Source: an uncultured cyanobacterium
GTDB taxonomy: Bacteria > Cyanobacteriota > Cyanobacteriia > Cyanobacteriales > CAWUOF01
Direction of reading: 5' to 3'
Assembly (NCBI GenBank): GCA_963744145.1
Contig: CAVUSO010000002.1
Coordinates: forward strand, 1 to 19,198
Length of the DNA stretch: 19,198 nucleotides
Position 1 is the first letter of the stretch. Each line of letters starts with the position of its first letter. Made by a program: the position numbers and the translations under genes. The notes beneath the pieces are model-generated. The model was not told the DNA's origin and did not search any database. It saw only the letters and a list, made by a program, of their open reading frames with translations. Positions 361 to 18,265 of the stretch are shown piece by piece.

Positions 361-867
361 CTAAGCTCGACTAGAATCTAGATTTTTTTCCGATTGCTCA
401 GGTGGTGATGTTTCTGATGATTTTGGGAGATGCTTGTTTCTAAGGTTATTCAATTTATCCTGATTCTCCGGAGAAATAGACTTTTGAGGATCTGCATCAG
501 ATGCAACGGTCGTACCAGACTCTGGAGTAATAGGATTTCCTTCTAGATTTTTTTCCGATTGCTCAGGTGGTGATGTTTCTGATGATTTTGGGAGATACTT
601 GTTTCTAAGGTTATTCAATTTATCCCGATTCTCCGGAGAAATAGACTTTTGAGGATCTGCATCAGATGCAACGGTCGTACCAGACGTTCCTTTAGGAGTA
701 GGTGCAGATCCATTCTCCCCAAGACCTTGTTCATTTGTCTGATGGATTTTATTATCTATGTTATCCTCTTTAGCGGGTACAAGATTATCTTGTGCCACAG
801 GAATCTCAGCGGTTGTAGAAGAACTTTGATCTTTTGGTTTTTTTTGTGGTTTAAAAAATTCAGACAT
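361..867 (-). CDS. Hypothetical low-complexity hydrophilic protein with an internal duplication (55-aa period)
   Basis: 168-aa ORF starting 17 nt after the ATPase stop, with an AGGA RBS; rich in S/P/E/K/N. Confidence 0.75.
   Translation of the reverse strand: MSEFFKPQKKPKDQSSSTTAEIPVAQDNLVPAKEDNIDNKIHQTNEQGLGENGSAPTPKGTSGTTVASDADPQKSISPENRDKLNNLRNKYLPKSSETSPPEQSEKNLEGNPITPESGTTVASDADPQKSISPENQDKLNNLRNKHLPKSSETSPPEQSEKNLDSSRA
377..685. repeat. In-frame tandem duplication: two 144-bp copies, 165-bp period
   Basis: 377-520 and 542-685 differ at 2 positions (H/Y and Q/R codons). Confidence 0.95.
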
Positions 868-884
868 AAATAATCCTATTGAAG

Positions 885-3800
885 TTAGTTAAGGGTAAGT
901 TTTAAGAAGTATTGCAAATCCTCTGGATCTTTTTCGTTTAGCTGAATAGCTAGACAAGTAACCAAAGAATGTTTTAATTCATTGCTCAAGTATGGGTAAA
1001 CGACAGAAGTAGCAGCCCAGTTTTGTAAAGCGGTATGAGGACTAATATCTTTATTTTGCATATCTTGGTGAAAAGAAGTGCGATCGCCTGCTAACATGAT
1101 CTTATTTTCATACCTAAACACACCAGATGCTTCACATTTAGCATATTCAGGATGGGGCAAACCCAACTCTAATAAATGGTTGGGAATTCGACAGATCCCA
1201 ATCCAGTTGGCTTGATCTTGTGGACTAGGATTAAGGATAGCATTTACCAACAGACGGTGCGCGTGTAAGGGTTGATGTCCCAACCAGCCGTGGATTTTGC
1301 CTTTTTCCTGGATTGCTTCAAGAGCAAGAAAAGAAATGGCACTGTTAAGAATGGCTTGAATGCGATCGCCTGTTAAATGATTAGCACCACGCTCTACTAA
1401 AATTTTACCCAATATGAGGCGGATATGATCAGCCGCAGGGAAACCAAAAGGTGTGGCAAGAATTTGTAAAATTAGATGAGATTTTAAATATCGGTATTGA
1501 GGGTTTTCTGAGAGAATTTGCACTAAATCTGTTGCTATTTCCATGCAATTAGCTAACTCAGATTCTGTGGGACAACCTGCGGGTGGGGCATAGAGTGCAT
1601 TATGTTTAGCTTGGAACTCTTGGAAAAAGGTATGAATTTCTTGATCTGACAAACGGGGGTTAAAATTGTTGCTAGGGTCATCTTTGAAATTTGGAGCGGA
1701 AGTAATGCTAGGTTCGGGTTGACCACCGATATAATAAAGCATTTGACCCGTACCCAAGGAAGCGAGAGATTTTTCCTGCTGGGGTGTAAGTAACATCGAT
1801 CGTCCTAATGCTTCCCGATTTTTGGCTTCAACAATTCGATGGGCGATTTTGATATTAGTATTAACCATAACATCAGGAACTAAACCATCGGGATTTTGTT
1901 CGGCTATAGCGATTCCCTGTCCAAATCCTCGTACTTCTGCTAACATATTGGCAAAGTTTCGTACTGCTTTACCTTTGGGATTTGCTGTTTCTTGATTGGT
2001 AGATTCCGATACATTTGCTAAGAGATTATGAGCTTCTTCAACTAGGAGTAAATGTTTTAATTCTCCGGTAGCTTGATGTCGTCTAGCTGTCCAATATTGA
2101 TAGCAACGGTTGAGAATTAAACCCATAATAAATGCTCGATCGTCTGTATTGGTAATTTGACTCATTTCCATGATTACTGGACGTTGCATAAGTTCGTCAT
2201 AAGGTACTGATTCGGTAGTATTGAGCATTTGTCCTAGAGTACCACGACAAAATTTATTCAGGCGCACGGAAATGGAGGCTGTTATTTCATCGGTGGTTTC
2301 TTTTTTGTAGCCGAGTTTGGGTACTATTTCTGACACTAAATTGGCTAAGTCAGAAAAGCGTGGTGGTGTTAGTTTGTTGTTATCACCAAGAGTGGTAAAT
2401 CCTTTACGTTTATAGGCTTCTTGGATTAATTGTTCGACGACATTGGGTAAGGGTCCCCACATACTCATGGAAACGGAAAATAAATCTAGCAATGCTCCTT
2501 GATGACTGTCGAGATTAATTCCTTCTGGTACTTGAAAGGGATTGAAGCGAAATGGGGCGGTTCGTTCGTCCCCAAGACTAAAAATTAGGAGGTCTTTTTG
2601 AAGGGAATTAACTGTTTTTAAGCCACGATATTCGGTTTTGGCGGGTTCTAATACCATCCAAGGGATGCGATGTTCTCGCCATAATGTTTCTAGTAGATAT
2701 AGGGATGTATTGGTTTTACCGCTACCAGGAACTCCGCTAATTAGGGAGTGTTGGGTTAGTTGTTTTTTGCTTAGTTCGAGGGAACCAATCCGAATTTCTG
2801 CGGGAATTTGGCTGATTTTTTGGGGACGACGAGCGTCTGTTGCACCTGGAGCGGATGGTAAACCCCAGACTCCATTGCGATCGCTGATCGGTAAACGAAA
2901 TACGCTGTGAACTTCTTCGGGACTAAATAACCAGGGCAAGCGGTCTAAATCGTAAGTATTTCCCCAACGATGTAAGGTTAAATCTACCCAATTTTGGTGT
3001 ACTGCTATTTGTTGAATTTCAGTTTGGGTACGGGTGACAATTCCACTACCACGAGGTTGATTTTCGGTTTGGGGTTTGCCATCAATGGTAGTTTGAAAGG
3101 CGGCAATTACTGACTGTGGTAATGCGGATTCGGAGATAATACTAATTGTCATTTCAAAGGGCGATCGCCAACTACTTTGTAACCGCGTCCAAGCTTGGGA
3201 TGCCTGCTCTGCTTCTACCAATTTTTCTTGATATTGTACACTACTAGAAATCACTCGATTTTGGGTACTTTCAGTGCGAGTAATACTAGCTATATTAGCA
3301 TATAATCTTGCTTGTTCTGCGATATATGTTGTTTCTTGTCTTGTTAATTGAGTCGGACGCAAATTAATCGCTACAGCAGCAGGTGTGGGATGGCAAACAA
3401 GGGCACGAAATAGTTCTTGAAAATTAGTAGGATTGGCAACCCAGGAGTCGATGCGAATACCTACAGCATCAGGGATATCAACGCTGGTAATTGTTTCTAA
3501 GTGAGTAATACTACGGCGGAATTCTGCTGATTGTCCCGGTTCATTAGTTAAAAATGGTAAGCGTAATAAAGCTAATTGTTCAGAATTGCGACAGGATTCT
3601 AAGGGATAACCGTTGGGAAAACTATCACGAACTTTATTAAAAAAATTACGGGCAGCAATAATAGTTTCTGATTCGCTTTGTCCTTCAGTTTTACCAACTA
3701 AACCAAAGATTAAATCTTTTTCTGAATCCCCTGTAGTGATGAGACGAAGGGATAAGGTAAAGCGGTTTTCACCGTGTAATTGTTGTATCCAACGTTGTTG

Positions 3801-3986
3801 AGATTGGAGTAATTGATTTAGAGCTGTATCATAACTCATTCCTGTCCGAGCTTGTTCGAGGGAAATTAAATCAGGAATTGCCGGAATTATCACTCCCCAA
3901 AATACTGCTAGAGTTTGCTGTTCTGTCGGTTCGATCGCGACAGCAGGAGCGTTACTTGTTTCCCATTTACTTAATGTTATAACCAC
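885..3986 (-). CDS. Large HerA/FtsK-superfamily (DUF87/VirB4-like) P-loop ATPase
   Basis: HSLISGVPGSGKT (Walker A), LLLVEEAH (Walker B), EVRGFG (Arg-finger region), IAEQNP motif; GTG start with GAGGTG RBS; long N- and C-terminal extensions. Confidence 0.88.
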   Translation of the reverse strand: MVITLSKWETSNAPAVAIEPTEQQTLAVFWGVIIPAIPDLISLEQARTGMSYDTALNQLLQSQQRWIQQLHGENRFTLSLRLITTGDSEKDLIFGLVGKTEGQSESETIIAARNFFNKVRDSFPNGYPLESCRNSEQLALLRLPFLTNEPGQSAEFRRSITHLETITSVDIPDAVGIRIDSWVANPTNFQELFRALVCHPTPAAVAINLRPTQLTRQETTYIAEQARLYANIASITRTESTQNRVISSSVQYQEKLVEAEQASQAWTRLQSSWRSPFEMTISIISESALPQSVIAAFQTTIDGKPQTENQPRGSGIVTRTQTEIQQIAVHQNWVDLTLHRWGNTYDLDRLPWLFSPEEVHSVFRLPISDRNGVWGLPSAPGATDARRPQKISQIPAEIRIGSLELSKKQLTQHSLISGVPGSGKTNTSLYLLETLWREHRIPWMVLEPAKTEYRGLKTVNSLQKDLLIFSLGDERTAPFRFNPFQVPEGINLDSHQGALLDLFSVSMSMWGPLPNVVEQLIQEAYKRKGFTTLGDNNKLTPPRFSDLANLVSEIVPKLGYKKETTDEITASISVRLNKFCRGTLGQMLNTTESVPYDELMQRPVIMEMSQITNTDDRAFIMGLILNRCYQYWTARRHQATGELKHLLLVEEAHNLLANVSESTNQETANPKGKAVRNFANMLAEVRGFGQGIAIAEQNPDGLVPDVMVNTNIKIAHRIVEAKNREALGRSMLLTPQQEKSLASLGTGQMLYYIGGQPEPSITSAPNFKDDPSNNFNPRLSDQEIHTFFQEFQAKHNALYAPPAGCPTESELANCMEIATDLVQILSENPQYRYLKSHLILQILATPFGFPAADHIRLILGKILVERGANHLTGDRIQAILNSAISFLALEAIQEKGKIHGWLGHQPLHAHRLLVNAILNPSPQDQANWIGICRIPNHLLELGLPHPEYAKCEASGVFRYENKIMLAGDRTSFHQDMQNKDISPHTALQNWAATSVVYPYLSNELKHSLVTCLAIQLNEKDPEDLQYFLKLTLN

Positions 3987-4001
3987 CCCAACACCTCATG
4001 A

Positions 4002-4802
4002 TTAAATAGTAAATTTTTCAACTTCCTCAAGGGAAAAACCCAATGCTGCTGCGACTTGATCTTGACTTAATCCCATTCCTAACAACCGAGGAATAGCATC
4101 TCGTCTTGCTTGTTCTGCTGTATCAGCACGTTCTGCACCTGTCGGTAATAAATTTCCTGACCGATCCCACCATCGTAACCACAACATTTCCTGATTTTGA
4201 TACCTACCTTGCCATAATCCTAACTCTACATTTAAAGGGTCAATTACATAGCGACTACAAGGATTAGGAGCTAACTGCTGATACATTTTATTGATCAGTC
4301 GATAGACTTCTAGTTTCCCTGTTTTAATTTCATATATGCCATAATAGGAAGCTTGGATAATCTGTTCATATACCCAAAACTTTCCTGGTTTTTGTTGAGA
4401 ATCTCCTAAAGAAGATAAAGGTGTCTGATCTCTTTCTTCCTCACCATTTCCTGATGCAAACTCTAGAATAATTAATGGGTTAATCAGTTCCTGTGATAGT
4501 ACATAGGAACGACGTATTTCACCATCTAATTTTGGCGGTACATTAGGAACATAGAACCAATCAGGTGCTGCTGCTCCCTTGTCCAAAGGATCAGTTTGTC
4601 TCCAGTAAATCCCACAATCTTGTCCGATCGCATACTGTCCGTCTGGATGAAGTTTTTCTAATACTGAACTAAGCGAATCAGTTAAAATAATACTTTGGGG
4701 ATGCTCCTGAAAATTCTTCACAAAAGTGCCATCTTCCTCGGGTAACTGAGTGTGATCAAGGAAGGAAGAGGTAATGATCGTTTTTTCCACTGCTTGGGTC
4801 AT
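4002..4802 (-). CDS. Uma2 family (DUF820) PD-(D/E)XK-like endonuclease
   Basis: APDWFYVP, PLIILEFAS, WLRWWD, and the typical cyanobacterial tail AIPRLLGMGLS..QVAAAL. Confidence 0.88.
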   Translation of the reverse strand: MTQAVEKTIITSSFLDHTQLPEEDGTFVKNFQEHPQSIILTDSLSSVLEKLHPDGQYAIGQDCGIYWRQTDPLDKGAAAPDWFYVPNVPPKLDGEIRRSYVLSQELINPLIILEFASGNGEEERDQTPLSSLGDSQQKPGKFWVYEQIIQASYYGIYEIKTGKLEVYRLINKMYQQLAPNPCSRYVIDPLNVELGLWQGRYQNQEMLWLRWWDRSGNLLPTGAERADTAEQARRDAIPRLLGMGLSQDQVAAALGFSLEEVEKFTI

Positions 4803-5020
4803 TTGGCTAAGTCAATTAAAGCGTTGCGATACTTTTTGATGCCCCGTCTAGCGATTTCCATCTTTTTTGCAAAGTCGGGATCGAAAGCTGAGATTTCGTA
4901 ACCGTTGGGAGTTTTAGTGATATAGATAGTATCACCATCATCAATATTGAGGTTAGTCGCAATTTCTTTAGGGATGATCACGCTGAGAGAATTACCGCGC
5001 TTTTTTACGATGAGTCGCAT
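4799..5020 (-). CDS. AbrB/MazE/SpoVT-family antitoxin, Doc-partner-like
   Basis: KKRGNSLSVIIPKEI AbrB motif; C-terminus KKYRNALIDLAK; ATGA overlap with the downstream Uma2 gene. Confidence 0.85.
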   Translation of the reverse strand: MRLIVKKRGNSLSVIIPKEIATNLNIDDGDTIYITKTPNGYEISAFDPDFAKKMEIARRGIKKYRNALIDLAK

Positions 5021-5064
5021 GATGGTTTTCTGATGGGGAGATTTTATGTGATTTTACCAGTTAT

Positions 5065-5640
5065 CTATAAAATCGCATCAACACTAATTACCAAATCCGG
5101 AAAGGCAATGGGTGAGATACTTTCACCGCGTCTGAATTGTTGGACACTTTCATACCCATTAATAGATGGGTTGCGATAAACCTCAACCAATTCAGCCCCG
5201 ATATCTACGATCCAAAGTTCAATAATCCCAGCCCTACCATAGAGGACTGACTTCACATTATGATCGTTGTCAATAGTGGTAAGTACGGGCGTATTGCAAT
5301 ACGCCCCTTCAATCAGTAAATATATGTCTTGAGGCTGTGGATGGGATTCCCGGTAACAGTCTGTACGAAACCCCAGTATTGATAGATCAGGTTGTGGCTC
5401 TAATTGTCCGTTTAGCCTAATTGGGGACTGTGATCTGATTGTGGCACGTTTACCTAAAGCGTCAAAGAAAATTACTACCAAGCGATCAATACAGCTTGCA
5501 TGACGACTACCCATTGGTGCCATAAGAACAATATCCCCATCAATTAGTTCTGTCCGTTCATCAGGTCCAAGTATTCCTACTTCACCCAGTTTGTAATATT
5601 CCTCTACAGTAAATTTCTTTCTTGTTGCCACTGTGGTCAT
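5065..5640 (-). CDS. Uma2 family (DUF820) endonuclease containing an in-frame REP palindrome (alternative start at 5652)
   Basis: FTVEEYYKLGEVGIL..DERTELIDG, EPQPDL, LLIE, LYGRAGI.E.WIVD. Confidence 0.88.
   Translation of the reverse strand: MTTVATRKKFTVEEYYKLGEVGILGPDERTELIDGDIVLMAPMGSRHASCIDRLVVIFFDALGKRATIRSQSPIRLNGQLEPQPDLSILGFRTDCYRESHPQPQDIYLLIEGAYCNTPVLTTIDNDHNVKSVLYGRAGIIELWIVDIGAELVEVYRNPSINGYESVQQFRRGESISPIAFPDLVISVDAIL
5283..5308. repeat. REP-type palindrome inside the Uma2 CDS
   Basis: GTAC + perfect 20-bp palindrome GGGCGTATTGCAATACGCCC (5287-5306) + CT; same pattern as the REPs at 18877-18925. Confidence 0.8.
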
Positions 5641-5713
5641 AATTCTCACCATCCTAGTACAGAATCAAGCTTTATTTACCTGTTCGGGGGTCACTTCCAA
5701 ATATTTCTGTAAT

Positions 5714-5739
5714 CCCCTACACTTAACTGAACCGTATTG
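5714..5739. mobile_element. Solo end of MITE family A
   Basis: CCCCTACACTTAACTGAACCGTATTG matches the family A terminus; no partner TIR nearby. Confidence 0.75.
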
Positions 5740-5771
5740 TATTATAACTTAATTTAATGTGTAGTCCTGTT

Positions 5772-6185
5772 TTATTCTCTCAAATCGCACACTAATTTTT
5801 TAAAAAGAGATACGGAAATAACTGTAGTGTTCGTTAAAATTTTAGCTTCAGTAAAATCGCGATCGCCAGTTATTAAAAAATTTGCTTCAGCTACTACAGC
5901 ACAAGCCAGAAATTTAGCATCTTTCCGATCTCTCGGAAAATCAACTTCAACGTTGACTTCAATCAGCGTTGTAGCATACTCAAGGATATTAAACCATCTC
6001 TCTTTTTGGGATTCCGTTAATCTGAGCCGACTACGACTTAAAACCTCCTGATATTCTCTGAGAATTTCTGCTGACACCACCCATTCAAAATTTGGACTCT
6101 CTGCAATAAACAAAATAACTGTTTCTGGGTTTCTCCCAGTTACCGCAGCAGAGACTAAAACATTAGTATCAATAACTATTCTCAT
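5772..6185 (-). CDS. PIN-domain toxin (putative type II TA toxin, PIN_3-like)
   Basis: MRIVIDTNVLVSA, RDRKDAKFLACA, LITGDRDF. Confidence 0.9.
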   Translation of the reverse strand: MRIVIDTNVLVSAAVTGRNPETVILFIAESPNFEWVVSAEILREYQEVLSRSRLRLTESQKERWFNILEYATTLIEVNVEVDFPRDRKDAKFLACAVVAEANFLITGDRDFTEAKILTNTTVISVSLFKKLVCDLRE

Positions 6186-6421
6186 TCTCCCCTTCGATAA
6201 GCCTCGATTTCTGCTGCTATTTCTTCTTCAGTCATCGGATTATTTGCGTGTAATGCTTGTGTTTCCTTCATTAACTCTCGTAAATTTTGTGCTAAGGCTG
6301 CTTTTTGATTATTTTCAACCAAAATAATCACTTCAACCCGTTGTCCAGGTTGAAAAGGTAAATCAGATAAAACTACCTTTGATGGATCTTCAATTGTCAC
6401 ATATTTTTTATAAGCAAACAT
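6182..6421 (-). CDS. Putative antitoxin of the PIN toxin
   Basis: 79 aa; LPFQPGQRVEVII and MTEEEIAAEIEAYR; ATGA overlap with the PIN gene. Confidence 0.8.
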   Translation of the reverse strand: MFAYKKYVTIEDPSKVVLSDLPFQPGQRVEVIILVENNQKAALAQNLRELMKETQALHANNPMTEEEIAAEIEAYRRGE

Positions 6422-6756: not shown

Positions 6757-7827
6757 TTATCTTTGGCTATATTCTATTCGCCTTGGTTTACCTATTTCTG
6801 CATTTCCTACATTTTTGATCATAAACTCTTGAAATAATGCTGCCCGCTCTTGACCAATAAAAGATCCTACTTGAATCGATTCTATCCCTGTTTCTTTTCT
6901 TACCATTCGATAAGCATCTTGACAAAATCGGGACTTAATGATTTGTAAATCTGTTTCATTATATCTAACAAATACTGGATAAAAATAAACTGGATAAGCG
7001 CTCGGATCTGTTGGAATTGAATCTCCACAAGCACTTTGGGGAAATGCCATTGTTTCAAAAGGATTAACTGGTGGTGTGTAAGATGGTGCGACTGGAGGAG
7101 GTATTGGAACTATTGAATTAGTAACAGAGTTAGAAGAACTAGAAACTTTTTCTGAATTGGTGTTGGATGTTAAAAATGCGTTTATCCTAATTCCTACAAT
7201 CCCAAGTATCGCCATTATTGTAGCACCTATTAACCCCCACTGCCATGCAGCTAGTTCGCGTTTTGTTTCATTTTCTGTTGGGAAAATATTCCCTCCTGGA
7301 GTAGAAATAACCGTTGGGCTAGAAATAACAGTCGGAGAAGTAGGAGTGAGTGCTTGCAACATCTGCATTGCATTAGCATAACGATACTGGGGTAATGTAG
7401 ATATAGCCGACTCTAAAACTGCTGCTAATTGATCGCTAACTAGACAATCATCTTGCCATTTCCAAGTACCATCGTAATTCCGTAAAACTTCAGGATTTTT
7501 TCCGGTGAGCAATTCAATAGTTGTCACTCCTAAAGCATAGATATCTCCCGCAGGATTAGCTTGTCCTGTTTGTATTTGTTCAGGGGCAATATAGCCAGGG
7601 ACAGCAAAACTATTAGCTTGAACTAAGCTTGCTTGTTGAGTATTTCTGTTTTGCACTAAAGTATCTGGGGAAATTCCACCGTGGATTAATCCTTGTGCGT
7701 GTAACTGTGCTAATTGTGGCAATACTTGTCGCAAAATATCAGTTACTTGAGGTTCAGAAAAGCCCCGTCCTTGACGTTCTGCTAACAAAATCCGATAAGT
7801 AGTTATTTGTTGAATATTGTCTTGCAT
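6757..7827 (-). CDS. Membrane-anchored pseudokinase A: C-lobe only, TM helix, C-terminal domain
   Basis: Starts near helix E (no N-lobe); HGGISPDTL replaces HRDxKPxN; no DFG; keeps GYIAPEQ and DIYALG; TM WGLIGATIMAILGIVGI; C-terminal CGD..YPVFV..FCQDA domain. Confidence 0.85.
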   Translation of the reverse strand: MQDNIQQITTYRILLAERQGRGFSEPQVTDILRQVLPQLAQLHAQGLIHGGISPDTLVQNRNTQQASLVQANSFAVPGYIAPEQIQTGQANPAGDIYALGVTTIELLTGKNPEVLRNYDGTWKWQDDCLVSDQLAAVLESAISTLPQYRYANAMQMLQALTPTSPTVISSPTVISTPGGNIFPTENETKRELAAWQWGLIGATIMAILGIVGIRINAFLTSNTNSEKVSSSSNSVTNSIVPIPPPVAPSYTPPVNPFETMAFPQSACGDSIPTDPSAYPVYFYPVFVRYNETDLQIIKSRFCQDAYRMVRKETGIESIQVGSFIGQERAALFQEFMIKNVGNAEIGKPRRIEYSQR

Positions 7828-7856: not shown

Positions 7857-8928
7857 TTAAAGAATACCGATGCTAACTGTATAAGTTGAATCATTTGGGG
7901 CAGAAATTTCTACTGTATAGTCTCCATTACTAGGTAATATTCCTTCCCAAAATTTTACTCCATTTTGTGCTGTTCCCAATCTGGTTCCATTGGGCGCAAT
8001 TACCGCTACATTTACATTGCCCTGTAAAATGTTGACGCTAAATTTTTGTCCTTGTCCACAGTCTAGTAAATAATGCTTAAGTTGACTGGGTGAAATGCTA
8101 CCAGATACCGTTGCTTCCGTAGCTTCCTGCATTAAAATTAACTCGATTGGTTTCTACTGATGTTGGTAATGATGATGGTAGTGGATTAGGTGGAGCTAAT
8201 CGATTAGATGAAAAATTCTTTTCAGGAGTCGGTGCTGGATTTACATCATCTTTTACCTGTTTTTTAGAACTAACTAAGTTAGCTGATTCAAAACCTACTA
8301 GGATAATCAATATTGATGCTATAGCAACGATTATACCCAACTGCGGTTGAGGTAAGTTTTGCGATCGCTGCATTCTATTGGGGGAATTTGGTGTAAATAA
8401 TAAAGTTGGGTTGATACTATTATTAGTAGGTAAAATAGTTGGAACTTTAGGATTAAGTGCTTCTAACATTTGCATCGCGTTAGTATAGCGATATTCAGGT
8501 GTAGCTATAGTCCGCTCTAAAACTGCTGTCAATTGGTCGCTAACTAGACAATAATCTTGCCATTTCCAAGTACCATCATCATTGCGTAAAACTTCAGGAT
8601 TTTTTCCGGTGAGCAATTCAATAGTTGTCACTCCTAAAGCATAGATATCTGCCGCAGGATTTGCTGGTGCTGTTTGTAATTGTGCTAGTGGAAGAGAACC
8701 GGGAGCGGTAAAGTTATCAGCTTTGGTTAAAATTACTTGCTTACTACTTTCATCTTGGATGATGGTATCTGGAGAAATTCTCCCATGTCCCAATCCCTGG
8801 GCGTGGATTTGCGCCAATTGTGGTAGCACCTGTCGAAGAAGTTCGGTTATTTCTATTTCTGAAAAACCTCGACCTTGGCGATCTGTCAGTAAGGTGCGGT
8901 AGGTTTTGCTATGAATTTAGTTTTGCAT
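7857..8928 (-). pseudogene. Membrane-anchored pseudokinase B (paralog of A) with a PPC-like beta-sandwich C-terminus; disrupted
   Basis: ATG at 8928 reads MQN*IHSKTYRTLLTDRQGRGFSE, colinear with the paralog A N-terminus; TAA at 8917-8919; one extra A at ~8115 splits ORFs 8098-8829 and 7857-8132 (removal restores NAGSYG-ATVSGSIS). Confidence 0.85.
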
Positions 8929-10061: not shown

Positions 10062-11060
10062 CTAGCCATAGATAGGAACTAACGGCGTTGGTTCTGGTTC
10101 AAATCGAGTTATCCAGCTTACAAATAAATCGGAGCCATAGTTTTCTACCAGTAAATAAGTTCTAACTCGATTATATGAAACAATACAGAATCTTCTGTAG
10201 TCAAATCTACCCATTACTCCTCGTTGAATAGGACATAACTCTACACCTAAAAAACTTTGGGTAGCTGAGTCGGCTATATGAGCATCTGTTAGCATAACTA
10301 CGCAACAATCCGTGTTTTCATATCCTCTCGTTTCTCCCAATCTTTCTTCTATTTTTACTGCTATTGTTTGAGCTGATTCTTTAAAATCAGGAATGATGTA
10401 GCCATCAAAAGCTTCAAACCCATTTCCTGATTGTTCTGGATGATAACCGCCAAACTTCCGTATCCAAGGGGTATTCCGAAAGCCTGTTATCATAGAAAAG
10501 TTAGCTGCTGTTTTTGCAAAAAACTTTCCCTCGTATTTCTTAAGCTGTTTTTCTACATACTGTTTCCAAGTCAGCACTTCTAACGAAGAAGATTGATTTG
10601 TCACCACAGATAGCTGCCACAGATTGCGGATTTCTTGCCAAAGATTCAGCAACGAAGAAGATTGATTTCTCGCCACAGATTGCTGCTGTGTTGAAGGTCT
10701 ACCCTGATAGGGATTTTGTGCATATACAGGTGGTGGTGTTAGTATTGTTGAAGCACTTATTCCACCTGGTGTTGCTACTAAAAAAATTCCACTAGCAAGA
10801 GCAATGCGCGTTTGATATTGAATCGGATAATCAATAATTTGCTGATTATCAACAAAAGTACCTGATCCGCTGCCTAAGTCTACGGCGTGCCAAGTTTGGC
10901 TAAATTGCTCAAAACTTAACTTCAAATGCTGGTTAGCAACAACATTTACATAAGGTAAAGAAATATCACAATCCGAACCACTGCCAATAATATACTCGCG
11001 GTTTGGTTTGAGGGTGTAGCTTTGACCTGTTTGTTCGATAACTAGCTTCAGTTCATTCAT
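10062..11060 (-). CDS. FHA-domain protein 1, probably frameshift-truncated (hydrophobic continuation to 9781)
   Basis: N-terminal FHA fold (YIIGSGSDCDI...QHL...DLGSGSGTFV); a shifted frame from ~10072 to 9781 reads LWLVL...IWLQIYGVTPDLMKRLGILPKKANGILMLILILSLQYILIIFWLILALV. Confidence 0.8.
   Translation of the reverse strand: MNELKLVIEQTGQSYTLKPNREYIIGSGSDCDISLPYVNVVANQHLKLSFEQFSQTWHAVDLGSGSGTFVDNQQIIDYPIQYQTRIALASGIFLVATPGGISASTILTPPPVYAQNPYQGRPSTQQQSVARNQSSSLLNLWQEIRNLWQLSVVTNQSSSLEVLTWKQYVEKQLKKYEGKFFAKTAANFSMITGFRNTPWIRKFGGYHPEQSGNGFEAFDGYIIPDFKESAQTIAVKIEERLGETRGYENTDCCVVMLTDAHIADSATQSFLGVELCPIQRGVMGRFDYRRFCIVSYNRVRTYLLVENYGSDLFVSWITRFEPEPTPLVPIYG
10582..10686. repeat. In-frame 69-bp-period duplication in the FHA protein 1 linker
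   Basis: AACGAAGAAGATTGATTT...CCACAGAT at 10582 and 10651 (SVARNQSSSL / SVVTNQSSSL), with NLWQ twice between them. Confidence 0.8.
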
Positions 11061-11267
11061 GGCTTGAAGAAGGTAAATTACTGTATTGCCTTGAGGTTAA
11101 ACACGAAAATGCTAGCATCGAACCTTACCGGAAATATGAATCAGCGATCGATGCCTACTGAGTGATTAATTAAGTGTACAATGCCACGTTTTAAAAGCAA
11201 GTATTTGGATCATCTGATTAAGTTAAATTTTCCTAAAGAAGTAATTTTATTTACAAAAGAGCAAGAT
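11061..11267 (-). promoter_or_regulatory. Conserved FHA-gene leader/promoter, copy 1
   Basis: Homologous to 12422-12620 and 18266-18471; GCATCGA...TCGATGC inverted repeat at 11115-11154; extended -10-like TGCTAGCAT on the minus strand; GTA-N8-TAC at 11241-11254. Confidence 0.65.
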
Positions 11268-11726: not shown

Positions 11727-12131
11727 TTATGGAGTAATTAATGGCACAGATGGAAAGTAAGTTCGATAACGGTTGACATCGCGGGTTAGTAGAGTCATAC
11801 CTGCGATCGCCGCATGAGCGCCAATGTAAAAGTCAGGTAATGGCGATCGCCTCTCTCCACCTCGACGGCGATAGTCTAGAAAACTTTGCCCTGCCAGAAA
11901 AGCTGCTGTATATGGGAGTGGATCGCGGCGAAAGAATGCTTCAGGTAACGCTGCTTCTAACTCTTCAGGTTGGTTAAACCCGATCGAGATTTCGGCGTAA
12001 ATGATCGGGTTGATAACCAAATTCCCCTGACGAGATTGTTCTGCCAGCATTTGGGCTGACCACTCAACCCACTGGGGGTCTTCGGTCAGAATGTCTAGGA
12101 GTACGTTGCTGTCAACCAAAATATCAGTCAT
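11727..12131 (-). CDS. vapC: Type II TA toxin, VapC/PIN ribonuclease
   Basis: ILVDSNVLLD, NPIIYAE, PLPDFYIGAHA, LLTRD. Confidence 0.92.
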   Translation of the reverse strand: MTDILVDSNVLLDILTEDPQWVEWSAQMLAEQSRQGNLVINPIIYAEISIGFNQPEELEAALPEAFFRRDPLPYTAAFLAGQSFLDYRRRGGERRSPLPDFYIGAHAAIAGMTLLTRDVNRYRTYFPSVPLITP

Positions 12132-12355
12132 ATATCTGCCCGTGTGAGTTGCATAATGTCGTAAGTGGTTAGGCTTCGGGTGGCTTTGCCGCGCAGGTTA
12201 GCGATCAGTTCTGCTCCCAGGTTGGGTATGGGCTGTTTGCGGAGTTGAAGGGTATCCCCAATCACTTCAAGTTGGATTTCTGTACCGGGTAATAACCCAA
12301 GCCGCTCTTGAATGTCGGCAGGAATGGTAATTTGTCCGTTAGGGCTAATTTTCAT
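12128..12355 (-). CDS. AbrB/MazE/SpoVT-family antitoxin
   Basis: GQITIPADIQERLGLLPGTEI; ATGA overlap with vapC; AAGGAG RBS. Confidence 0.9.
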   Translation of the reverse strand: MKISPNGQITIPADIQERLGLLPGTEIQLEVIGDTLQLRKQPIPNLGAELIANLRGKATRSLTTYDIMQLTRADI

Positions 12356-12361: not shown

Positions 12362-12421
12362 TTACTCCTTATCTGTGTAGCTTTGACCTGTTGGTTCGAT
12401 AACTAGCTTCAGTTTATTCAT
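12362..12421 (-). pseudogene. 5' stub of a third FHA gene (MNKLKLVIEPTGQSYT-DKE*)
   Basis: 14 of the first 16 residues match the FHA proteins' N-terminus MNELKLVIEQTGQSYT; then joins abruptly to the antitoxin RBS. Confidence 0.85.
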
Positions 12422-12620
12422 AGCTGGAAAAAGGTAAACTACTACATTAACTGGAAGTTAAACGCGAAAGTGCTAGCATCGAACCTGTGCGGAAATACGA
12501 ATCAGCGATCGATGCGTCCTGATATCTTAAATAAAGGTTATTCGGCCACATTTTTGCCAAAGTATTTGTATTGTTTTATTAAGTTAAATTTTGATAAAGA
12601 AGTAACTTTACTTACAAAAA
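12422..12620 (-). promoter_or_regulatory. Conserved leader/promoter copy 2, in the divergent intergenic region between the TA pair and the pseudokinase-peptidase genes
   Basis: Core TGCTAGCATCGAACCTnnnCGGAAATACGAATCAGCGATCGATGC; GTA-N8-TAC at 12602-12615; TATAAT at 12628-12633 on the plus strand. Confidence 0.6.
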
Positions 12621-12687
12621 AGAAAGGTATAATTTAGACTTAGGTTGTAGAATCAGTAGCAAGTATATAGCCAAAGAGATATTGTTT

Positions 12688-14184
12688 ATGACTTCAACCT
12701 TAGCAATCGGTTCAATAATACATCAAAGGTATTGCCTCCAGGAACTTACTCAAAAATCCCAATTTACAGAGATTTATCAGGCACAAGACCAAATCAGAAA
12801 TAATCAAATTTGTATTTTAAGAAGCTTGATTGAAAAAAAACTTAATGATGCAGCTAGAGTTGCAGAGCAATTTCAAGCTGAGTTGACCCTATTGACGGAG
12901 GTCAATCATCCACAAATTCAGAGTATCAAAGATTTTTTCTGGGAAAATGATCGTTTGTACATTATCCAAGACTATTATGTAGTTGGACAAATTGAGCAAA
13001 ATTGGTTACAAAATCGTCCTGCTCTAAGCGAAACGGAAGCGATCCAGCTATTAATCCAAATTTTGCCAGTCCTGAGTTACTTACATGAGCGACATATTAG
13101 CCATCGCAATATTTCTCCTAGTAACCTAATTTTCAGAAGTTCAGATCATCAACCGATCCTGACTAACTTTGGCATTATCCAAGAAATTATGGATCAGATG
13201 GAAATAGAAACTAATGAAACTAAACTTTTACACGAAGTAAGAAAGCTACCAGTAGGTTTTATTCCAACCGGTGTGGAGGAAGATTTGTATGCTTTGGCTG
13301 TGACAATAATAATCCTGCTGACGGGTAAAGAAGTTCAGGTTTTATTTGATTCTACAACCAAAACGTGGGACTGGGAACGCTGGAAATTGTTAAGTGATCA
13401 ACTAACCCAGGTAGTAAACCGAATGTTAGCAGTACAAGTAAGCGATCGCTTTCCCAGTGCTAATGCGGTTTTAGCAGCGTTAAATTCTCCTGCAAAAATT
13501 CCAGTACCGTCATTACCTACGGTACTATCTCCTCCTCCCATTGCTAACCCTTACCTATCTCCCCAAGCAGCACCACCGACCGGATGGATACCAACTAATG
13601 TATCTTCTGCACCACTAGCAAAACCCGTTCAAAATAACACTTGGCTGCTAGCTTTTGCTGGTGGAATTTTACTTACTTTGATCGGAATAATCGCGATAAT
13701 TTATGTTAAGGGTTGGTCGGGTTTCAATTCTGCCGATCAAAAAGCTCCTAGCGCGATCGCATCTCCAACGATATTACCAACACCAACTCCCCCTGCTTTA
13801 ACCGAGCCAGAAGCAGTAAATCTAATTAATCAATATTTGCAAGCAAAAAAACAGATGTTTGCTCCTCCCTACGATCGACAAATTGCTGCCAATATAATGA
13901 CCGGAAAAGCTTATCACGATGTAACTGGTCCTGAAGGTACAATTACTTGGTTACAACAACATAATTCCTACTATCGCTATGGCAATCTTAATGCTGGATC
14001 TACTGGATACTTTAACACTAGCGGAGATCAAGCCGAAATTCAAGTTATAATTAGCGAGGAGGTGTATTTCTATGTGAACAATATTCTGAACAAATCTGAT
14101 AATTACTCCGCTAATTATAGATTTTCACTAAGACGAGAAAATAATACTTGGAAAATAGCAGATCGACAAAACCTTAATAAATAA
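12688..14184 (+). CDS. Membrane Ser/Thr pseudokinase with a C-terminal IMS/ARC6-like (DUF4101) domain (ORF track start 12682 TTG)
   Basis: Full kinase fold but no Gly-rich loop, CILR at the VAIK position, HRN for HRD, NFG for DFG; Pro-rich linker; TM WLLAFAGGILLTLIGIIAIIYV; EAVNLINQYLQAKK...FAPPYD...WL...YY.Y...WKI. Confidence 0.85.
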   Translation: MTSTLAIGSIIHQRYCLQELTQKSQFTEIYQAQDQIRNNQICILRSLIEKKLNDAARVAEQFQAELTLLTEVNHPQIQSIKDFFWENDRLYIIQDYYVVGQIEQNWLQNRPALSETEAIQLLIQILPVLSYLHERHISHRNISPSNLIFRSSDHQPILTNFGIIQEIMDQMEIETNETKLLHEVRKLPVGFIPTGVEEDLYALAVTIIILLTGKEVQVLFDSTTKTWDWERWKLLSDQLTQVVNRMLAVQVSDRFPSANAVLAALNSPAKIPVPSLPTVLSPPPIANPYLSPQAAPPTGWIPTNVSSAPLAKPVQNNTWLLAFAGGILLTLIGIIAIIYVKGWSGFNSADQKAPSAIASPTILPTPTPPALTEPEAVNLINQYLQAKKQMFAPPYDRQIAANIMTGKAYHDVTGPEGTITWLQQHNSYYRYGNLNAGSTGYFNTSGDQAEIQVIISEEVYFYVNNILNKSDNYSANYRFSLRRENNTWKIADRQNLNK

Positions 14185-14202: not shown

Positions 14203-14970
14203 ATGTTTTTTCTAACCAAGCTACGAAAACACTGGCGCTTTATTATAGTTGCTATTGTAGTTACTATTGGAATTATTCTGAATAGTTACGCAGTTATACT
14301 ATATACAAAACAGCAGACTAATGTATGTCAAACTCCTGTTCAAACTAATCCATCTCTGTTATCAGCAAATCCTAATTTAGACATCCCCAGCATAGCTAAC
14401 CCAATTGCTTTGATTCCTACTTTTAAACCAGCTCCAAGTGACCAACCCTTATACGGACATTTTCCCTATCCAGAAGCAGATGCTAATAGTTTGATGACGA
14501 TCGCTAGCTATGCTAAAGGAGAATATCAGCGATTTGAAAGAATGGCACCAGAAGCAGCAATAGAGCTAATGAAAATGTTTTATGCTGCTCGATATGAAGG
14601 AGTTTGGATTGTTCCAGTTTCAGCTTTTCGGAATGTAGCAACTCAAGAAATCCTGTTCAGAAACCAAATTCAGCGACGAGGTTCACCGGAAGCAGCAGCT
14701 AAATTGAGTGCCCCTCCTGGTTACAGTGAACATCAGACTGGATATGCGATAGATTTAACAGATGGTCATTTTCCGAAACAAGACATTACATACGATTTTG
14801 ATAAAACAGATGCTTTTCGTTGGCTAAATCTCCATGCTAAAGAATTTGGGTTTGAAATGTCATTTCCAGAGAATAACTCTCAAGGAGTTAGCTATGAACC
14901 TTGGCACTGGCGTTTTATTATTTCTCCTACGGCTGAAAAAGTTTTTGCTCGTGCTAGAAAAAAGATTTGA
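14203..14970 (+). CDS. M15B (VanY-like) D-alanyl-D-alanine carboxypeptidase with N-terminal membrane anchor
   Basis: SAFR, SAPPGYSEHQTGYAID and YEPWHWRF zinc-peptidase motifs. Confidence 0.92.
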   Translation: MFFLTKLRKHWRFIIVAIVVTIGIILNSYAVILYTKQQTNVCQTPVQTNPSLLSANPNLDIPSIANPIALIPTFKPAPSDQPLYGHFPYPEADANSLMTIASYAKGEYQRFERMAPEAAIELMKMFYAARYEGVWIVPVSAFRNVATQEILFRNQIQRRGSPEAAAKLSAPPGYSEHQTGYAIDLTDGHFPKQDITYDFDKTDAFRWLNLHAKEFGFEMSFPENNSQGVSYEPWHWRFIISPTAEKVFARARKKI

Positions 14971-14983
14971 TTAGTTGATAATG

Positions 14984-15166: not shown

Positions 15167-15168
15167 GT

Positions 15169-15521: not shown

Positions 15522-15535
15522 AATGAATAGTATTA

Positions 15536-16831
15536 TTATTCCATTGCTCTAATTATACTGGCAATTTTTGAATTTTTAATAATTGAGCTAATTTTATTTT
15601 CATTACTTCTTAAGTTTCCCTCCCGACATAATTCATTGGCTTTTTGATAGTAGTCTTCTGCGCCAAAATTTCTATATTCTGTTGCAGGTGTCAATCTGCG
15701 ATTACAAGTGTAACAGCAATAGCTTACTAATAGGTGAAATATTTTTAAATCAAAAGGTTTAAAATCCTGGTTTGCCGATGGAGAATTTAACATTTTCCAT
15801 ACTTCATCAGCTTCGTAAGGAGGAAGATTTTCTAAATATCCATATTTTTTGGCAATCCCAGCAATAAGTTTATCAAAGCTAGGTTTTGGTTTTTCAGGAG
15901 GTTGATGATAAATGCGATCGCCAAATTGTACCTCTCCGTGAAAGTTAGCTCCCTGTTGGTTATAAATATGCTCACCTTTTTGCTGGTAAGTATCTCCACC
16001 TCTAATATTATAAGTCACGTTTTGTACTGGATTAACAGGTTCTGTCTTTTCATTATCGGTTGGTTTTGGCAGATTTTTTTCTCTACCTTCCCAAAAATGA
16101 ATCGGTCTACCACAATGGAAAAAAATCGGACGTTGAGGGTAAGTTTTAAATTGAGGATGAGCATGAAACTCTCGTTCTACTCCTGCTTGAACTTCGGAAC
16201 TGGTAATATCAAAACCGACGGAATACTGATGAGGATCGAGAGATTTTAGTAACAGATGAGTTAGTACCCCGTGACCATCTACAGCGAGGGATTCTTCCCA
16301 AGGTCTACAAGATGTAATAATTGAGCGTTTTATGCCAGAATTTGCTGTCTGCAAAATCTCTTGATTTAACTTACCACTATGACAGCAATCTAACCAGATA
16401 ATTTGCTCCGGAACTTTACTTTTTGCTAATTGTTTTGCGAGCCAATCAAACTCAACACCTAATATTTTCTGATCTTGGCAATTTGTATCACTCCCACAGA
16501 GATAACCGTATTCTTCGTCATATTCATTTTTGACCAAACCATGTCCTGCAAAAAATAACAATACCGTCTGGGTGCCATCTGGTGATTTGACGAATAGGTT
16601 ATAAATCTCATCCTTAAGAGTCTGTACCTTGACAATACCTTTTTCTTCAACCGTTACTGCTCCATCTGTATAGGTTTCTGGTAATAACTGAACTTCAAAT
16701 CGCCCATAATCTCTCAGCATTTTGGCGATCGCTTCAGCATCTCCTGGGGCTTTTGGTAAATGTTGTCCTTTTCCTTTCCCATTGAAGTTAGGATAACGAT
16801 TAATTCCAACTACTAATGCTTTACGGTTCAT
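15536..16831 (-). CDS. Caspase-like cysteine protease (peptidase C14) with an uncharacterised C-terminus
   Basis: RKALVVGINRY, FFAGHG (catalytic His), WLDCCHSG (catalytic Cys), GVLT..LL..L. Confidence 0.9.
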   Translation of the reverse strand: MNRKALVVGINRYPNFNGKGKGQHLPKAPGDAEAIAKMLRDYGRFEVQLLPETYTDGAVTVEEKGIVKVQTLKDEIYNLFVKSPDGTQTVLLFFAGHGLVKNEYDEEYGYLCGSDTNCQDQKILGVEFDWLAKQLAKSKVPEQIIWLDCCHSGKLNQEILQTANSGIKRSIITSCRPWEESLAVDGHGVLTHLLLKSLDPHQYSVGFDITSSEVQAGVEREFHAHPQFKTYPQRPIFFHCGRPIHFWEGREKNLPKPTDNEKTEPVNPVQNVTYNIRGGDTYQQKGEHIYNQQGANFHGEVQFGDRIYHQPPEKPKPSFDKLIAGIAKKYGYLENLPPYEADEVWKMLNSPSANQDFKPFDLKIFHLLVSYCCYTCNRRLTPATEYRNFGAEDYYQKANELCREGNLRSNENKISSIIKNSKIASIIRAME

Positions 16832-16870
16832 TTTAAACCATCCTTTTGATCTCAGTAATTATTGGTAATA

Positions 16871-18265
16871 CTACTCTAAAAGACTCTCGGTTATTTCATT
16901 TAATGCTTGAGTTTTTATCAAACCAGGTTTTCTCTGTCTCACCTGCTGACGAATATTATATGCTGCATCTCTAGCTTTTGAGTGGTGAGCAGATTCTGCA
17001 TCTGATTTGTCCACTACGCGAGTATCCTCAAATACTGGAAATTGGATGCTTTGACTATCTGTAGTGGTGATTTCTATTAATTCGAGGTAAATTTCTTTTC
17101 TCTTATTTGTACCTACATTAGACGAAGATATTTCTTTATGTTTGATCGAGACAATACTGTCGTATAAATACTCGCAAGTTTCATCATCTAAAGAAGTTCC
17201 CTTAATAAAATTATACTTACATCTATAATAGGCTATGAAATTTTTGCATGGATAAATAGCGATGAAATCATATATGCTATATTTGAGTTTACGATCAAGT
17301 CCTTTTTCGCAAAAATAGTCACTACCTACTGCAATCAGAATCTTTTTAAATGCGTCAATGATATTACTAATCTCTTTTTTATCTGCAATATTTACTCCAG
17401 TTAATAAAACTATGGGTTCTCCATCCAGAATATTTTCAACATCCTTTCCTTCCGATTCCCCAATATTTAATTCTATTTTGCCGATTTTAATAAGTTCTTG
17501 ACGGTCATATAAAACCCATTTCCGAATTTGCTCATCTGTTACTGGCGGTTCTGGCAAGGTAGGTGAACGGGAAATAGTATTGTTATAGAGTATAATCGCC
17601 AAAATAATCACAAAAACACTCAATCCGATGTGAATCATCAATGAGATCAGTAATGCGCCAAGAAAAATATAAACCCAAATTCCCTCTTTTGGGCTTCGCT
17701 GCTCGTTAATAGATGCAATCCAGTCATCAATAACTTGTTTTCCTACAGGTACATCTATTGGTTGAGCCTCATTACGTTTTTTTAAACACTCAAAATATTC
17801 TCGAATTAGTTTTCGATCGGGTTGTTCGGAAAAGGTGATCGGCGTTGGTGAATACAGCTTGACAGAATAACCTGGTTGAGGTGCAGGTGCAGGTGGAGTT
17901 TGATAATAGGTTGGCGATCCTGTCTGTGGTTGATAGGTATTAGGTTGACTTTCTCCTGGCGTTATTACTGATGGCGTCACTATTAAAAAAATTCCATTAG
18001 CAAGAGCAATGCGTGTTTGATATTTAATAGGATAATCATTAATTTGTTGATTATTAACAAAAGTACCAGTGCTGCTACCTAAATCTATCGCGTGCCAAGT
18101 TTGGCTAAATTGCTCAAAACTTAATTTCAAATGCTGGTTAGCAACAACATTTACATAAGGTAAAGAAATATCACAATCCGAGCCACTACCAATAATATAC
18201 TCGCGGTTGGGTTTGAGGGTGTAGCTTTGACCTGTTTGTTCGATAACTAGCTTCAGTTCATTCAT
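16871..18265 (-). CDS. FHA-domain membrane protein 2
   Basis: First 98 aa differ from FHA protein 1 at 9 positions; P/Q/T linker; hydrophobic segment IWVYIFLGALLISLMIHIGLSVFVIILAIILY; C-terminus unrelated to FHA protein 1. Confidence 0.88.
   Translation of the reverse strand: MNELKLVIEQTGQSYTLKPNREYIIGSGSDCDISLPYVNVVANQHLKLSFEQFSQTWHAIDLGSSTGTFVNNQQINDYPIKYQTRIALANGIFLIVTPSVITPGESQPNTYQPQTGSPTYYQTPPAPAPQPGYSVKLYSPTPITFSEQPDRKLIREYFECLKKRNEAQPIDVPVGKQVIDDWIASINEQRSPKEGIWVYIFLGALLISLMIHIGLSVFVIILAIILYNNTISRSPTLPEPPVTDEQIRKWVLYDRQELIKIGKIELNIGESEGKDVENILDGEPIVLLTGVNIADKKEISNIIDAFKKILIAVGSDYFCEKGLDRKLKYSIYDFIAIYPCKNFIAYYRCKYNFIKGTSLDDETCEYLYDSIVSIKHKEISSSNVGTNKRKEIYLELIEITTTDSQSIQFPVFEDTRVVDKSDAESAHHSKARDAAYNIRQQVRQRKPGLIKTQALNEITESLLE

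Follow-up and report, generated by a model that had tools for sequence, protein, structure and literature searches.

A conserved cyanobacterial operon combining a predicted VirB4-type ATPase with membrane pseudokinases: a candidate minimal protein exporter

Results

Genes of the locus

We analyzed a stretch of DNA from an uncultured cyanobacterium (the window) that comprises the entire contig C2, 19,198 bases, of a four-contig, 7.7-Mb genome; the contig stops 360 bases past the last gene. Its central feature is a run of genes for an ATPase, membrane proteins with kinase-like or FHA domains, and a TPR protein. An earlier note on this DNA had proposed that these genes, with a peptidoglycan peptidase and a caspase, encode a translocation, conflict, or signaling complex built from parts like those in secretion systems of type VIIb (T7SSb). 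The genes it named were all found in place, Pfam confirmed the TPR, VanY/M15, and caspase assignments, and the ATPase is 1033 amino acids long. The co-oriented run that it obtained by setting aside a toxin-antitoxin (TA)/Uma2 block is real, but the gene it listed as a transmembrane (TM) protein is a frame-broken gene for a protein of ~90 amino acids. The run, the gene behind it, and the divergent pseudokinase gene are as follows.

361 to 867, minus strand: disordered polar protein of 168 amino acids with a 48-amino-acid internal repeat; variable family directly behind the ATPase; candidate cargo or cargo tail
885 to 3986, minus strand: ATPase of predicted VirB4 architecture, 1033 amino acids (N-terminal VirB4-like domain, 1 to ~390; HerA/VirB4 P-loop domain, ~394 to 775; helical C-terminal domain, ~790 to 1033)
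6757 to 7827, minus strand: pkA, C-lobe-only pseudokinase with one predicted TM segment and an outer domain without a Pfam match
7857 to 8928, minus strand: pkB, C-lobe-only pseudokinase with a TM segment and an outer domain (open reading frame, ORF, 7857 to 8132), broken by a stop at 8917 to 8919 and a frameshift near 8124
8934 to 9365, minus strand: TPR protein of 143 amino acids without a TM segment (Pfam TPR); conserved core member
9378 to 9645, minus strand: conserved protein of ~90 amino acids with one predicted TM segment and cytoplasmic helices; the split-off end of the FHA1 membrane domain; frameshifted here
9780 to 11060, minus strand: FHA1, a degenerate FHA domain, proline-rich linker, conserved alpha/beta domain of no named family, and TM tail (ORF 10062 to 11060; tail in other frames to about 9780)
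12682 to 14184, plus strand: pkC, bilobed pseudokinase with a TM segment and an ARC6-like IMS domain; divergent from the FHA operon; optional member

The ATPase is predicted to have VirB4 architecture

The ATPase matches Pfam DUF87/HerA (E value, 2.7e-6) and has a single pair of Walker A and Walker B motifs, both intact. Across 105 sequences, these motifs and nearby Gln and Arg positions are invariant. An AlphaFold2 (AF2) model of the full-length protein (pLDDT, 90.9; pTM, 0.70) contains one P-loop domain, and its sole hydrophobic window forms a beta-strand, so the protein is predicted to lack a TM anchor. We assigned the helical C-terminal domain of ~240 amino acids from the whole-protein model; fold searches covered the full length, the ATPase domain, and the N-terminal domain. 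With the full-length model, the top Foldseek matches were full-length TrwK/VirB4, aligned over about 900 columns. The ATPase domain matched VirB4 (4ag5) with a Z score of 32.5 and a root mean square deviation (rmsd) of 2.9 over 342 residues. The N-terminal 392 residues, modeled alone (pLDDT, 78.6), gave 14 matches at an E value of ≤0.001, and all those listed are VirB4 proteins. Among 48,161 chains searched, this domain matched TrwK with a Z score of 16.7 (rmsd, 3.7; 269 residues; 8% identity); the next-best chains were those of ESX (Z, 8.4 and 8.3). On the basis of these models, we predict that the ATPase carries both the N-terminal and the ATPase domains of the VirB4 type.

Other profiles gave low scores. 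The CedD model matched the ATPase with an E value of 2e-13 (49.9 bits; cutoff, 600), and NCBIfam HerA_antiphage scored 19.7 bits (cutoff, 800). PADLOC matches were weak (E values, 1e-9 to 1e-4) and confined to the ATPase domain. Pfam P-loop_TraG had no match in the five carrier genomes and did not match the ATPase itself. NCBIfam NF033849, named "serine-rich protein," matched the ATPase domain with an E value of 7.8e-27, scoring far below its cutoff, which suggests a related, uncharacterized ATPase family.

The operon is conserved but patchily distributed

Of 7,999 scored candidates, 973 matched the ATPase. Fifty-nine of the 120 listed matches, the window's own included, are at least 55% identical (55 to 82%), and those with names are cyanobacterial. 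Full-length orthologs occur in 2 of 41 relatives, 3 of 401 genomes class-wide, and 4 of 401 order-wide; here as in all genome counts for the ATPase, the genome that holds the window is included. A further 16 genomes of the order-wide set had only matches of 33 to 38% identity. A profile of the 90-amino-acid protein matched in 4 of these 401 genomes, precisely those with the full-length ATPase.

Our tabulation covers 16 loci and excludes duplicates and fragments (L014, L018, L021, L022, and L023). Twelve of the 16 have at least 6 kb upstream of the ATPase, and some are close kin (L007/L008/L009 and L011/L020). The same order recurs in 11 of the 12: FHA membrane protein, 90-amino-acid membrane protein, TPR protein, membrane (pseudo)kinases, ATPase, and disordered proteins. 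The FHA1 domain, the 90-amino-acid gene, and the TPR gene are each present in 11 of the 12, a kinase-fold membrane protein in all 12, an IMS domain in 7, and an M15 peptidase in 4. L009, the locus without the core, has a split ATPase gene, and L013 has lost most of its FHA1 domain and carries a broken ATPase gene. Operons of 5 to 8 genes are found in the named genomes of Sphaerospermopsis aphanizomenoides BCCUSP55 and Anabaena sp. UHCC 0451. The spread is patchy, covering about 1% of genomes that are scattered over families, with the operon at differing chromosomal sites. The linkage of the ATPase to pseudokinase, FHA, and TPR genes that the earlier note had anticipated is thus conserved, with M15 as a frequent, though optional, partner; the caspase and a second FHA gene (FHA2), which it had counted as members, occur in 0 of the 16 loci. 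Judged from sequence, we hold that the genes form a conserved operon and are not a product of local decay.

Kinase and FHA motifs are lost across the family

pkA and pkB begin at the alphaD/alphaE region, read HGG/HGR at the HRD position, and have the DFG-activation segment deleted. pkC retains both lobes but lacks the glycine loop, and its motifs read HRN and NFG. All three genes therefore lack catalytic motifs, as had been claimed. Among 45 relatives of pkA (E value, ≤1e-20; window pkB is one of them), none has an N-lobe, HRD is present in none where the catalytic loop is readable, and 43 have a predicted TM segment. Each of four pkC orthologs lacks HRD, DFG, or both. The window pseudokinases are 30 to 38% identical to ordinary cyanobacterial kinases. 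A pattern search of the window's own genome found 85 kinase-like ORFs, 40 of them with both motifs, so the cell does have active kinases elsewhere.

The outer domains of the pseudokinases vary freely among loci (Pilin_GH, IMS, SH3, WG repeats, SecDF-P1, and DUF4359). Pilin_GH occurs in six pseudokinases from three loci, with weak matches to ComP_DUS. The outer domain of pkB is fused to a pseudokinase in L020, and the divergent arrangement of pkC is repeated in L012, L013, L017, and L031. We dropped a possible link between IMS and VirB8 through a common NTF2-like fold, which neither a paper nor a PDB sequence match confirmed.

In both FHA1 and FHA2, the FHA domain has G-S where the canonical motif is G-R and an A in place of the SxxH serine; the canonical NGT is SGT in FHA1. 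The statement that both domains lack the canonical residues was thus borne out. Of 35 family rows, 1 retains the arginine and 9 retain the serine. The evidence supports a loss of kinase and FHA motifs that is ancestral to the family and not local. The earlier note had allowed that orthologs elsewhere might be intact, which would mean local decay; the loss was instead found family-wide, with one exception, L016, whose kinase looks intact.

FHA1-type proteins form 33 clusters at 50% identity. The 90-amino-acid protein is fused to the FHA1 C terminus in 4 of 33 FHA1 homologs, so the two form one unit. No VirB3-, VirB6-, or VirB8-type Pfam match was obtained in the sequences of FHA1 and 90-amino-acid orthologs. 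An Atlas search with a poor model of the FHA1 C-terminal domain returned unnamed clusters only (best score, 0.83; TM score under 0.5). Homology of the FHA1/90-amino-acid domain to the upstream partners of sister ATPase clades was not supported: hhalign gave probabilities of ≤2.4% in six comparisons despite a look-alike motif.

Genes behind the ATPase include toxin-like cassettes in two loci

The 168-amino-acid protein behind the window ATPase is 33% identical over 108 amino acids to the protein at the same position in L031 and carries short motifs shared with other downstream proteins; the repeat within its gene spans 144 bp and is 98.6% alike. Across 14 loci, the 19 co-oriented downstream proteins consist of 65 to 83% P/E/S/Q/K/D/N/T/G, and 16 of them are net acidic. 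Several pairs from different families align on short motifs. Enrichment of these motifs in 17 of the 19 is descriptive only, being circular, as the patterns were chosen from the same proteins. In L025, a 71-amino-acid tail is found by itself and also, at 90% identity, following a globular domain. A ParB-like domain in L025 was considered as a toxin and not counted; its motif was seen by eye only and had no Pfam or plasmid match.

The tail is preceded in L012 and L024 by an N-terminal domain of about 125 amino acids, 39% alike between the two loci. The L024 domain is 42.9% identical (E value, 1e-13) to the last 100 residues, the extreme C terminus, of a HINT polymorphic toxin from a Streptomyces plasmid. 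As a lead, it also lies near Tox-SHH Atlas clusters (score, 0.93; 27 to 30% of members). Each of these genes is preceded by a gene for 143 to 152 amino acids, and those two are 47% alike; from its position, this upstream gene may be an immunity gene. We concluded that the L012 and L024 domains, found in 2 of 14 loci, resemble polymorphic-toxin nucleases by sequence. Of the roles suggested earlier, translocation and conflict gain support from these cassettes in relatives.

Sister ATPase clades have other partners

A tree of 36 ATPase domains, built by a quick method with SH-aLRT support and no bootstrap, placed the 12 rows of the window ATPase family in one clade (100). Sister clades agree with gene neighborhoods: Hsp70/GTPase (100), helical pairs (99), two membrane-protein types (100 each), and a group of cyanobacteria and Actinomycetota (94). 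Their downstream genes are variable too, encoding Ntox46 (L026; E value, 8e-19), OmpA (L027), an HExxH-type protein (L042; 25.6 bits, below the cutoff), and long acidic repeat proteins.

In L006, L039, L041, L042, L044, and L048, Hsp70-like and GTPase genes come before the ATPase, and a gene for ~110 amino acids and HExxH metallopeptidase-like genes come after it; one copy of this clade is on Anabaena cylindrica plasmid pANACY.04. In the clade of L028, L035, L036, L037, and L045, the ATPase is followed by two small helical proteins (~126 and ~185 amino acids), conserved as a pair, that could be WXG100-like substrates; those scanned had no WXG100 match. The clade of L027, L046, and L049 is common to cyanobacteria and Streptomyces/Rhodococcus plasmids; there, a small membrane protein is encoded upstream and long acidic proteins downstream. 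Two bacterial dynamin-like genes precede a distant ATPase in L029 (L029:3196-11583).

Optional members, insertions, and local additions

The remaining features of the window lie in or around the operon.

4002 to 6421, minus strand: inserted TA/Uma2 block, outside the conserved unit; the Uma2 genes each have at least 13 chromosomal paralogs
12375 to 12421, minus strand: third FHA start remnant that includes the shared upstream region and is interrupted by an inserted vapBC pair (11727 to 12355)
14203 to 14970, plus strand: VanY/M15B peptidoglycan peptidase with an N-terminal membrane anchor (Pfam E value, 6.6e-39); optional, 4 of 12 loci
15536 to 18265, minus strand: caspase and FHA2, local additions (0 of 16 loci)

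An M15 gene also adjoins the distant-clade ATPase of L038, where IMS and M15 genes follow the ATPase. Small unrelated genes, often TA- or Uma2-like by inspection, split the operon between the TPR and ATPase genes in several loci (L007:8400-8792, L008:4913-5713, L031:8288-9639, and window 4002-6421). The Uma2 gene at 5065 to 5652 has a divergent stretch near its C-terminal motif relative to the chromosomal paralogs, possibly from compensating indels or assembly error. Just past the operon on the metagenome contig of L016 is a telomere resolvase (ResT/TelK) gene (L016:12410-14323), which hints at a linear element.

The caspase has 13 listed chromosomal matches. A region of ~250 to 500 bp upstream of FHA, with the FHA start, occurs three times in the window (10767 to 11267, 17972 to 18471, and 12375 to 12626; 92% and 78% alike). 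The third copy marks the original divergent junction of pkC and FHA. The head and upstream region of FHA2 copy those of FHA1 (494 bp, 92% identical to the FHA1 5' region), and its C-terminal membrane part (window 16871-17782; also L056 to L060) belongs to an unnamed family found in 16 of 331 genomes of the order and absent from carrier G004. By this comparison FHA2 is a local chimera, a duplicated FHA1 head joined to an unrelated membrane domain. A conserved leader or operator 5' of FHA1 was sought and rejected: none is evident across species, and just the three window copies align.

State of the window copy

Relatives of C2 by sequence match are cyanobacteria, and C2 and the chromosome have in common repeats and Uma2, caspase, and kinase paralogs. 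We found no second copy of the ATPase or FHA genes elsewhere in the genome. No relative of the operon was found among the viral contigs searched, and 46 plasmid records match in part, none reaching 80% query coverage. A promoter and terminator scan of the window did not rise above shuffle level.

Frame changes or a stop interrupt FHA1, the 90-amino-acid gene, and pkB. In pkB, the in-frame stop is codon 4, and the frameshift separates the outer domain from the pseudokinase. Many contigs of run X1 are identical to the window across hundreds of bases, and near-identical X1 contigs lack single bases at 8124 (pkB frame) and 9451 (90-amino-acid gene frame). These contigs have low depth (about 3) and cover neither the pkB stop nor the FHA1 break; X1 may be the source sample, so the missing bases point to assembly error but are not independent support. 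The small contigs of this genome look error-prone, strain-variant, or of low quality, because contig C4 duplicates a chromosomal stretch (C1 5,029,603-5,051,211) at 98.5% with 117 indel bases in 21.6 kb. Contig C3 has a few segments of 68 to 77% identity in common with the chromosomal region matched by C4. Several of the frameshifts in the window copy are probably assembly errors.

Discussion

Comparison with known systems

We tested the operon for membership in known classes. Of the parts of a type IV secretion system (T4SS), the VirB4 ATPase alone was recognized, and the operon belongs neither to T7SSb, nor to X-T4SS, nor to the HerA defense pairs. It resembles T4SS (VirB4/TrwK of R388; VirB4 of Thermoanaerobacter) in the joining of an N-terminal domain to a HerA-like ATPase and in a nearby peptidoglycan hydrolase. 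However, the window ATPase adds the helical C-terminal domain of ~240 amino acids, and the operon has no recognizable VirB2/3/6/8/9/10/11, linked VirD4, or relaxase; its partners are FHA, TPR, and kinase halves. The T4SS of pIP501 includes TraE (VirB4-like), TraF (an essential membrane pseudokinase), and TraG (a wall hydrolase) (PMC13037476) and is the only case in the papers searched that joins these three. It is a 15-gene conjugative system with VirB6, VirB8, and VirD4 homologs in a one-membrane host, whereas the window pseudokinases derive from host Hanks-type kinases, mostly consist of the C-lobe only, and vary in number and outer domain.

In T7SSb, YukC/EssB is a phosphorylation-independent scaffold (PMC12599244), and EssC is membrane bound and has four NTPase domains (PMC11217815). 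The likeness to T7SSb (EssB/YukC, EssC/YukB) drawn in the earlier note stands for the FHA domain blind to phosphothreonine and for the membrane pseudokinase, both likely scaffolds, and extends to toxin-like and immunity-like gene pairs that adjoin the machine. Unlike bilobed EssB, however, most of the pseudokinases lack the N-lobe, and they resemble host kinases. It does not extend to the motor, which is VirB4 shaped and not EssC-like, single domain, and soluble; in addition, FHA is on a separate membrane protein and WXG100 is missing. That no WXG100-like substrate is visible agrees with PF06013, which matched in 0 of 5 carrier genomes with working controls (matches in 3 of 14), although divergent helical hairpins could escape. 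EsaA, EssA, and EsaB/YukD had no match among the window's 18 scanned proteins, the scan being limited to the window.

Genes of X-T4SS effectors comprise an upstream immunity gene, an N-terminal toxin, and a C-terminal tail, and the machine has twelve class A subunits, VirD4, and XVIPCD (PMC6536674). L012 and L024 are alike in having an immunity-like gene upstream, an N-terminal toxin-like domain, and a C-terminal polar tail, and tail-only ORFs are a further common feature of the operon family and X-T4SS, but the class A subunit set, VirD4, and XVIPCD were not seen at the operon. Archaeal Ced/Ted DNA exchange (PMC11868833) is likewise minimal and T4SS-like, with a VirB4-like ATPase and few membrane partners; in contrast, we recognized no CedA/VirB6 or CedA1 pilin homolog by sequence, the host has two membranes, and the cargo-like genes are variable. 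The HerA anti-phage systems (Sir2-HerA and DUF4297-HerA) and DndH have the same ATPase domain fold (Z, 22 to 33) but another N-terminal domain, and a conserved effector enzyme is absent from the membrane-rich operon. Compared with polymorphic toxin systems, toxin-domain homology is present in 2 of 14 loci, immunity is suggested by position only, and the window has neither. We found no published description of the operon: the available parts of PMC7159879, PMC3482391, PMC4158269, PMC11868833, bioRxiv 10.64898/2026.10.19.760177, and PMC13622651 do not contain it, and survey supplements (e.g., of PMC7159879 and PMC3482391) could list it.

A possible VirB4-powered exporter

The reading we favor, at even odds (probability of about 0.5), is that the conserved operon encodes a pared-down, VirB4-driven exporter for conflict proteins, with no coupling protein linked to it. 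In this scheme, the VirB4-type ATPase would power a membrane machine derived from type IV systems and export the variable disordered proteins encoded behind it, a few of which bear toxin-like domains. The FHA1 membrane domain and the 90-amino-acid protein would anchor the soluble ATPase at the inner membrane, a role that VirB3/VirB6 have elsewhere. By analogy with EssB/YukC and TraF, the dead FHA domain, kinase C-lobes, and TPR protein may be phosphorylation-independent scaffolds. The outer domains of the pseudokinases could contact the wall or target surfaces, and M15 could open the peptidoglycan. The disordered, motif-bearing tails may serve as the export signal, which the ATPase itself would read, because no coupling protein is linked. 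We counted the patchy spread for export of conflict proteins, since such spread is typical of conflict systems.

Several observations weigh against this reading. The main gap is the outer membrane, the crossing of which it leaves unexplained; no outer-membrane component conserved among loci was seen in the tabulated operon content. None of the window's 18 scanned proteins has a VirB2/3/6/8/9/10-type Pfam match, and neither pilus (VirB2/5) nor core (VirB7/9/10) genes were seen there or as conserved members of the loci. The coupling protein family TraG-D_C (PF12696) is absent from the window's genome and two other carriers and present in 2 of 5 carriers, on other contigs (genomes 95 to 99% complete). 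The ATPase domain matches DndH-C (Z, 33.2) in a tie with VirB4, with HerA proteins at 27 or less. No supported toxin domain lies behind the ATPase in 12 of 14 loci, including the window, where the contig ends; the proteins there are mostly disordered. An L024-type toxin was found in 0 of 5 other carrier genomes, and the tail profile gave no match outside the operon loci that went into it (3 of 401 genomes); there is therefore no dispersed effector repertoire. The gene upstream of the toxin-like genes matches no immunity family and shows no relation to the gene after the Streptomyces toxin. L016 has an intact-looking kinase at the pseudokinase position, and the window copy has several frame breaks.

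Among other explanations, exchange of DNA is suggested by the motor itself. VirB4 and HerA folds are DNA translocases, and archaeal Ced is a simplified T4SS based on VirB4-like CedB/CedD (PMC11868833). A Ced-like or transjugation-like system would move chromosomal DNA into or out of the cell by way of the membrane partners, and its pilin-like outer domains would establish contact between cells; the Pilin_GH domains with their weak ComP_DUS matches and the CedD match, far below its cutoff, fit this. However, nuclease, relaxase, helicase, and recombination genes are not conserved in the loci, the outer domains are freely replaced by IMS, SH3, WG, SecDF-P1, and DUF4359, and the variable motif-bearing genes and toxin-like pairs are left unaccounted for, so we consider DNA exchange unlikely. 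We judge equally unlikely an envelope-sensing defense or cell death system, in which the variable outer domains would detect phage or damage to the wall, signaling would pass through dead kinase and FHA scaffolds, and the ATPase would release or activate an intracellular effector. HerA-family ATPases do occur in anti-phage systems (with weak PADLOC matches to the ATPase domain), inactive enzyme domains typify conflict systems of multicellular bacteria (PMC7159879), and patchy distribution, frequent TA insertions, and the Hsp70, dynamin, and GTPase partners of sister clades would suit defense. Yet the N-terminal domain is VirB4 type, unlike that of HerA linked to Sir2 or DUF4297, no effector enzyme is conserved in the loci, and a separate upstream immunity-like gene with a wall peptidase suits export better.

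The exported proteins might instead serve the cell itself: a housekeeping or developmental exporter would secrete disordered acidic proteins of the surface, sheath, or cell contacts, with toxin domains occasionally hitchhiking on the tail. The downstream genes of 12 of 14 loci, mostly disordered and without an enzyme domain, and the IMS, M15, and SH3 domains, which indicate the wall, agree with this, but presence in about 1% of genomes, in scattered families and sites, is unlike a developmental core function and makes it quite improbable. That the genes are a decaying remnant or a chance pile-up of dead signaling genes may apply to the window copy, given its three broken genes and the broken ATPases of L009 and L013; for the family it is very unlikely, as operons are intact in most relatives, the 59 listed ATPases are 55 to 82% identical, two window frameshifts are absent from near-identical X1 contigs, and C4 shows how many indel bases these contigs can hold. 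A true type VII (ESX/T7SSb) system transferred to cyanobacteria is largely refuted and has almost no chance of being correct. It would account for the phosphothreonine-blind FHA domain and membrane pseudokinase (PMC11217815) and for the weak fold match of the N-terminal domain to ESX chains, but a single NTPase domain without TM anchor or FHA is not the four-NTPase, membrane-bound EssC, WXG100 was found in none of the 5 carrier genomes, and the pseudokinases are 30 to 38% identical to ordinary cyanobacterial kinases.

The VirB4-powered exporter may also be one branch of an unrecognized secretion class, a broader proposal that we put forward only tentatively and think doubtful. In such a class, a lone VirB4-type ATPase, present in Cyanobacteria, Actinomycetota, and Bacillota and lacking a coupling protein, a pilus, and a core complex, would export polymorphic toxins that carry disordered tails as tags, each clade having recruited its own membrane scaffold (kinase C-lobes/FHA/TPR; Hsp70, dynamin, GTPase, or helical pairs).

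Implications

A small operon in named genomes makes both the minimum needs of VirB4 and the reading of substrates without VirD4 directly testable. If the favored reading is correct, VirB4-type transport would extend to a minimal protein-export machine in cyanobacteria. Half a kinase would have been retained in a solely structural role, as a membrane module whose outer domains can be exchanged, and a further pseudokinase would have been recruited into a secretion machine, beside EssB of T7SSb and TraF of pIP501. To our knowledge, interbacterial weapons are poorly known in cyanobacteria. If the operon is indeed one branch of an unrecognized class, mat and soil cyanobacteria would possess a contact weapon with swappable surface-recognition modules.

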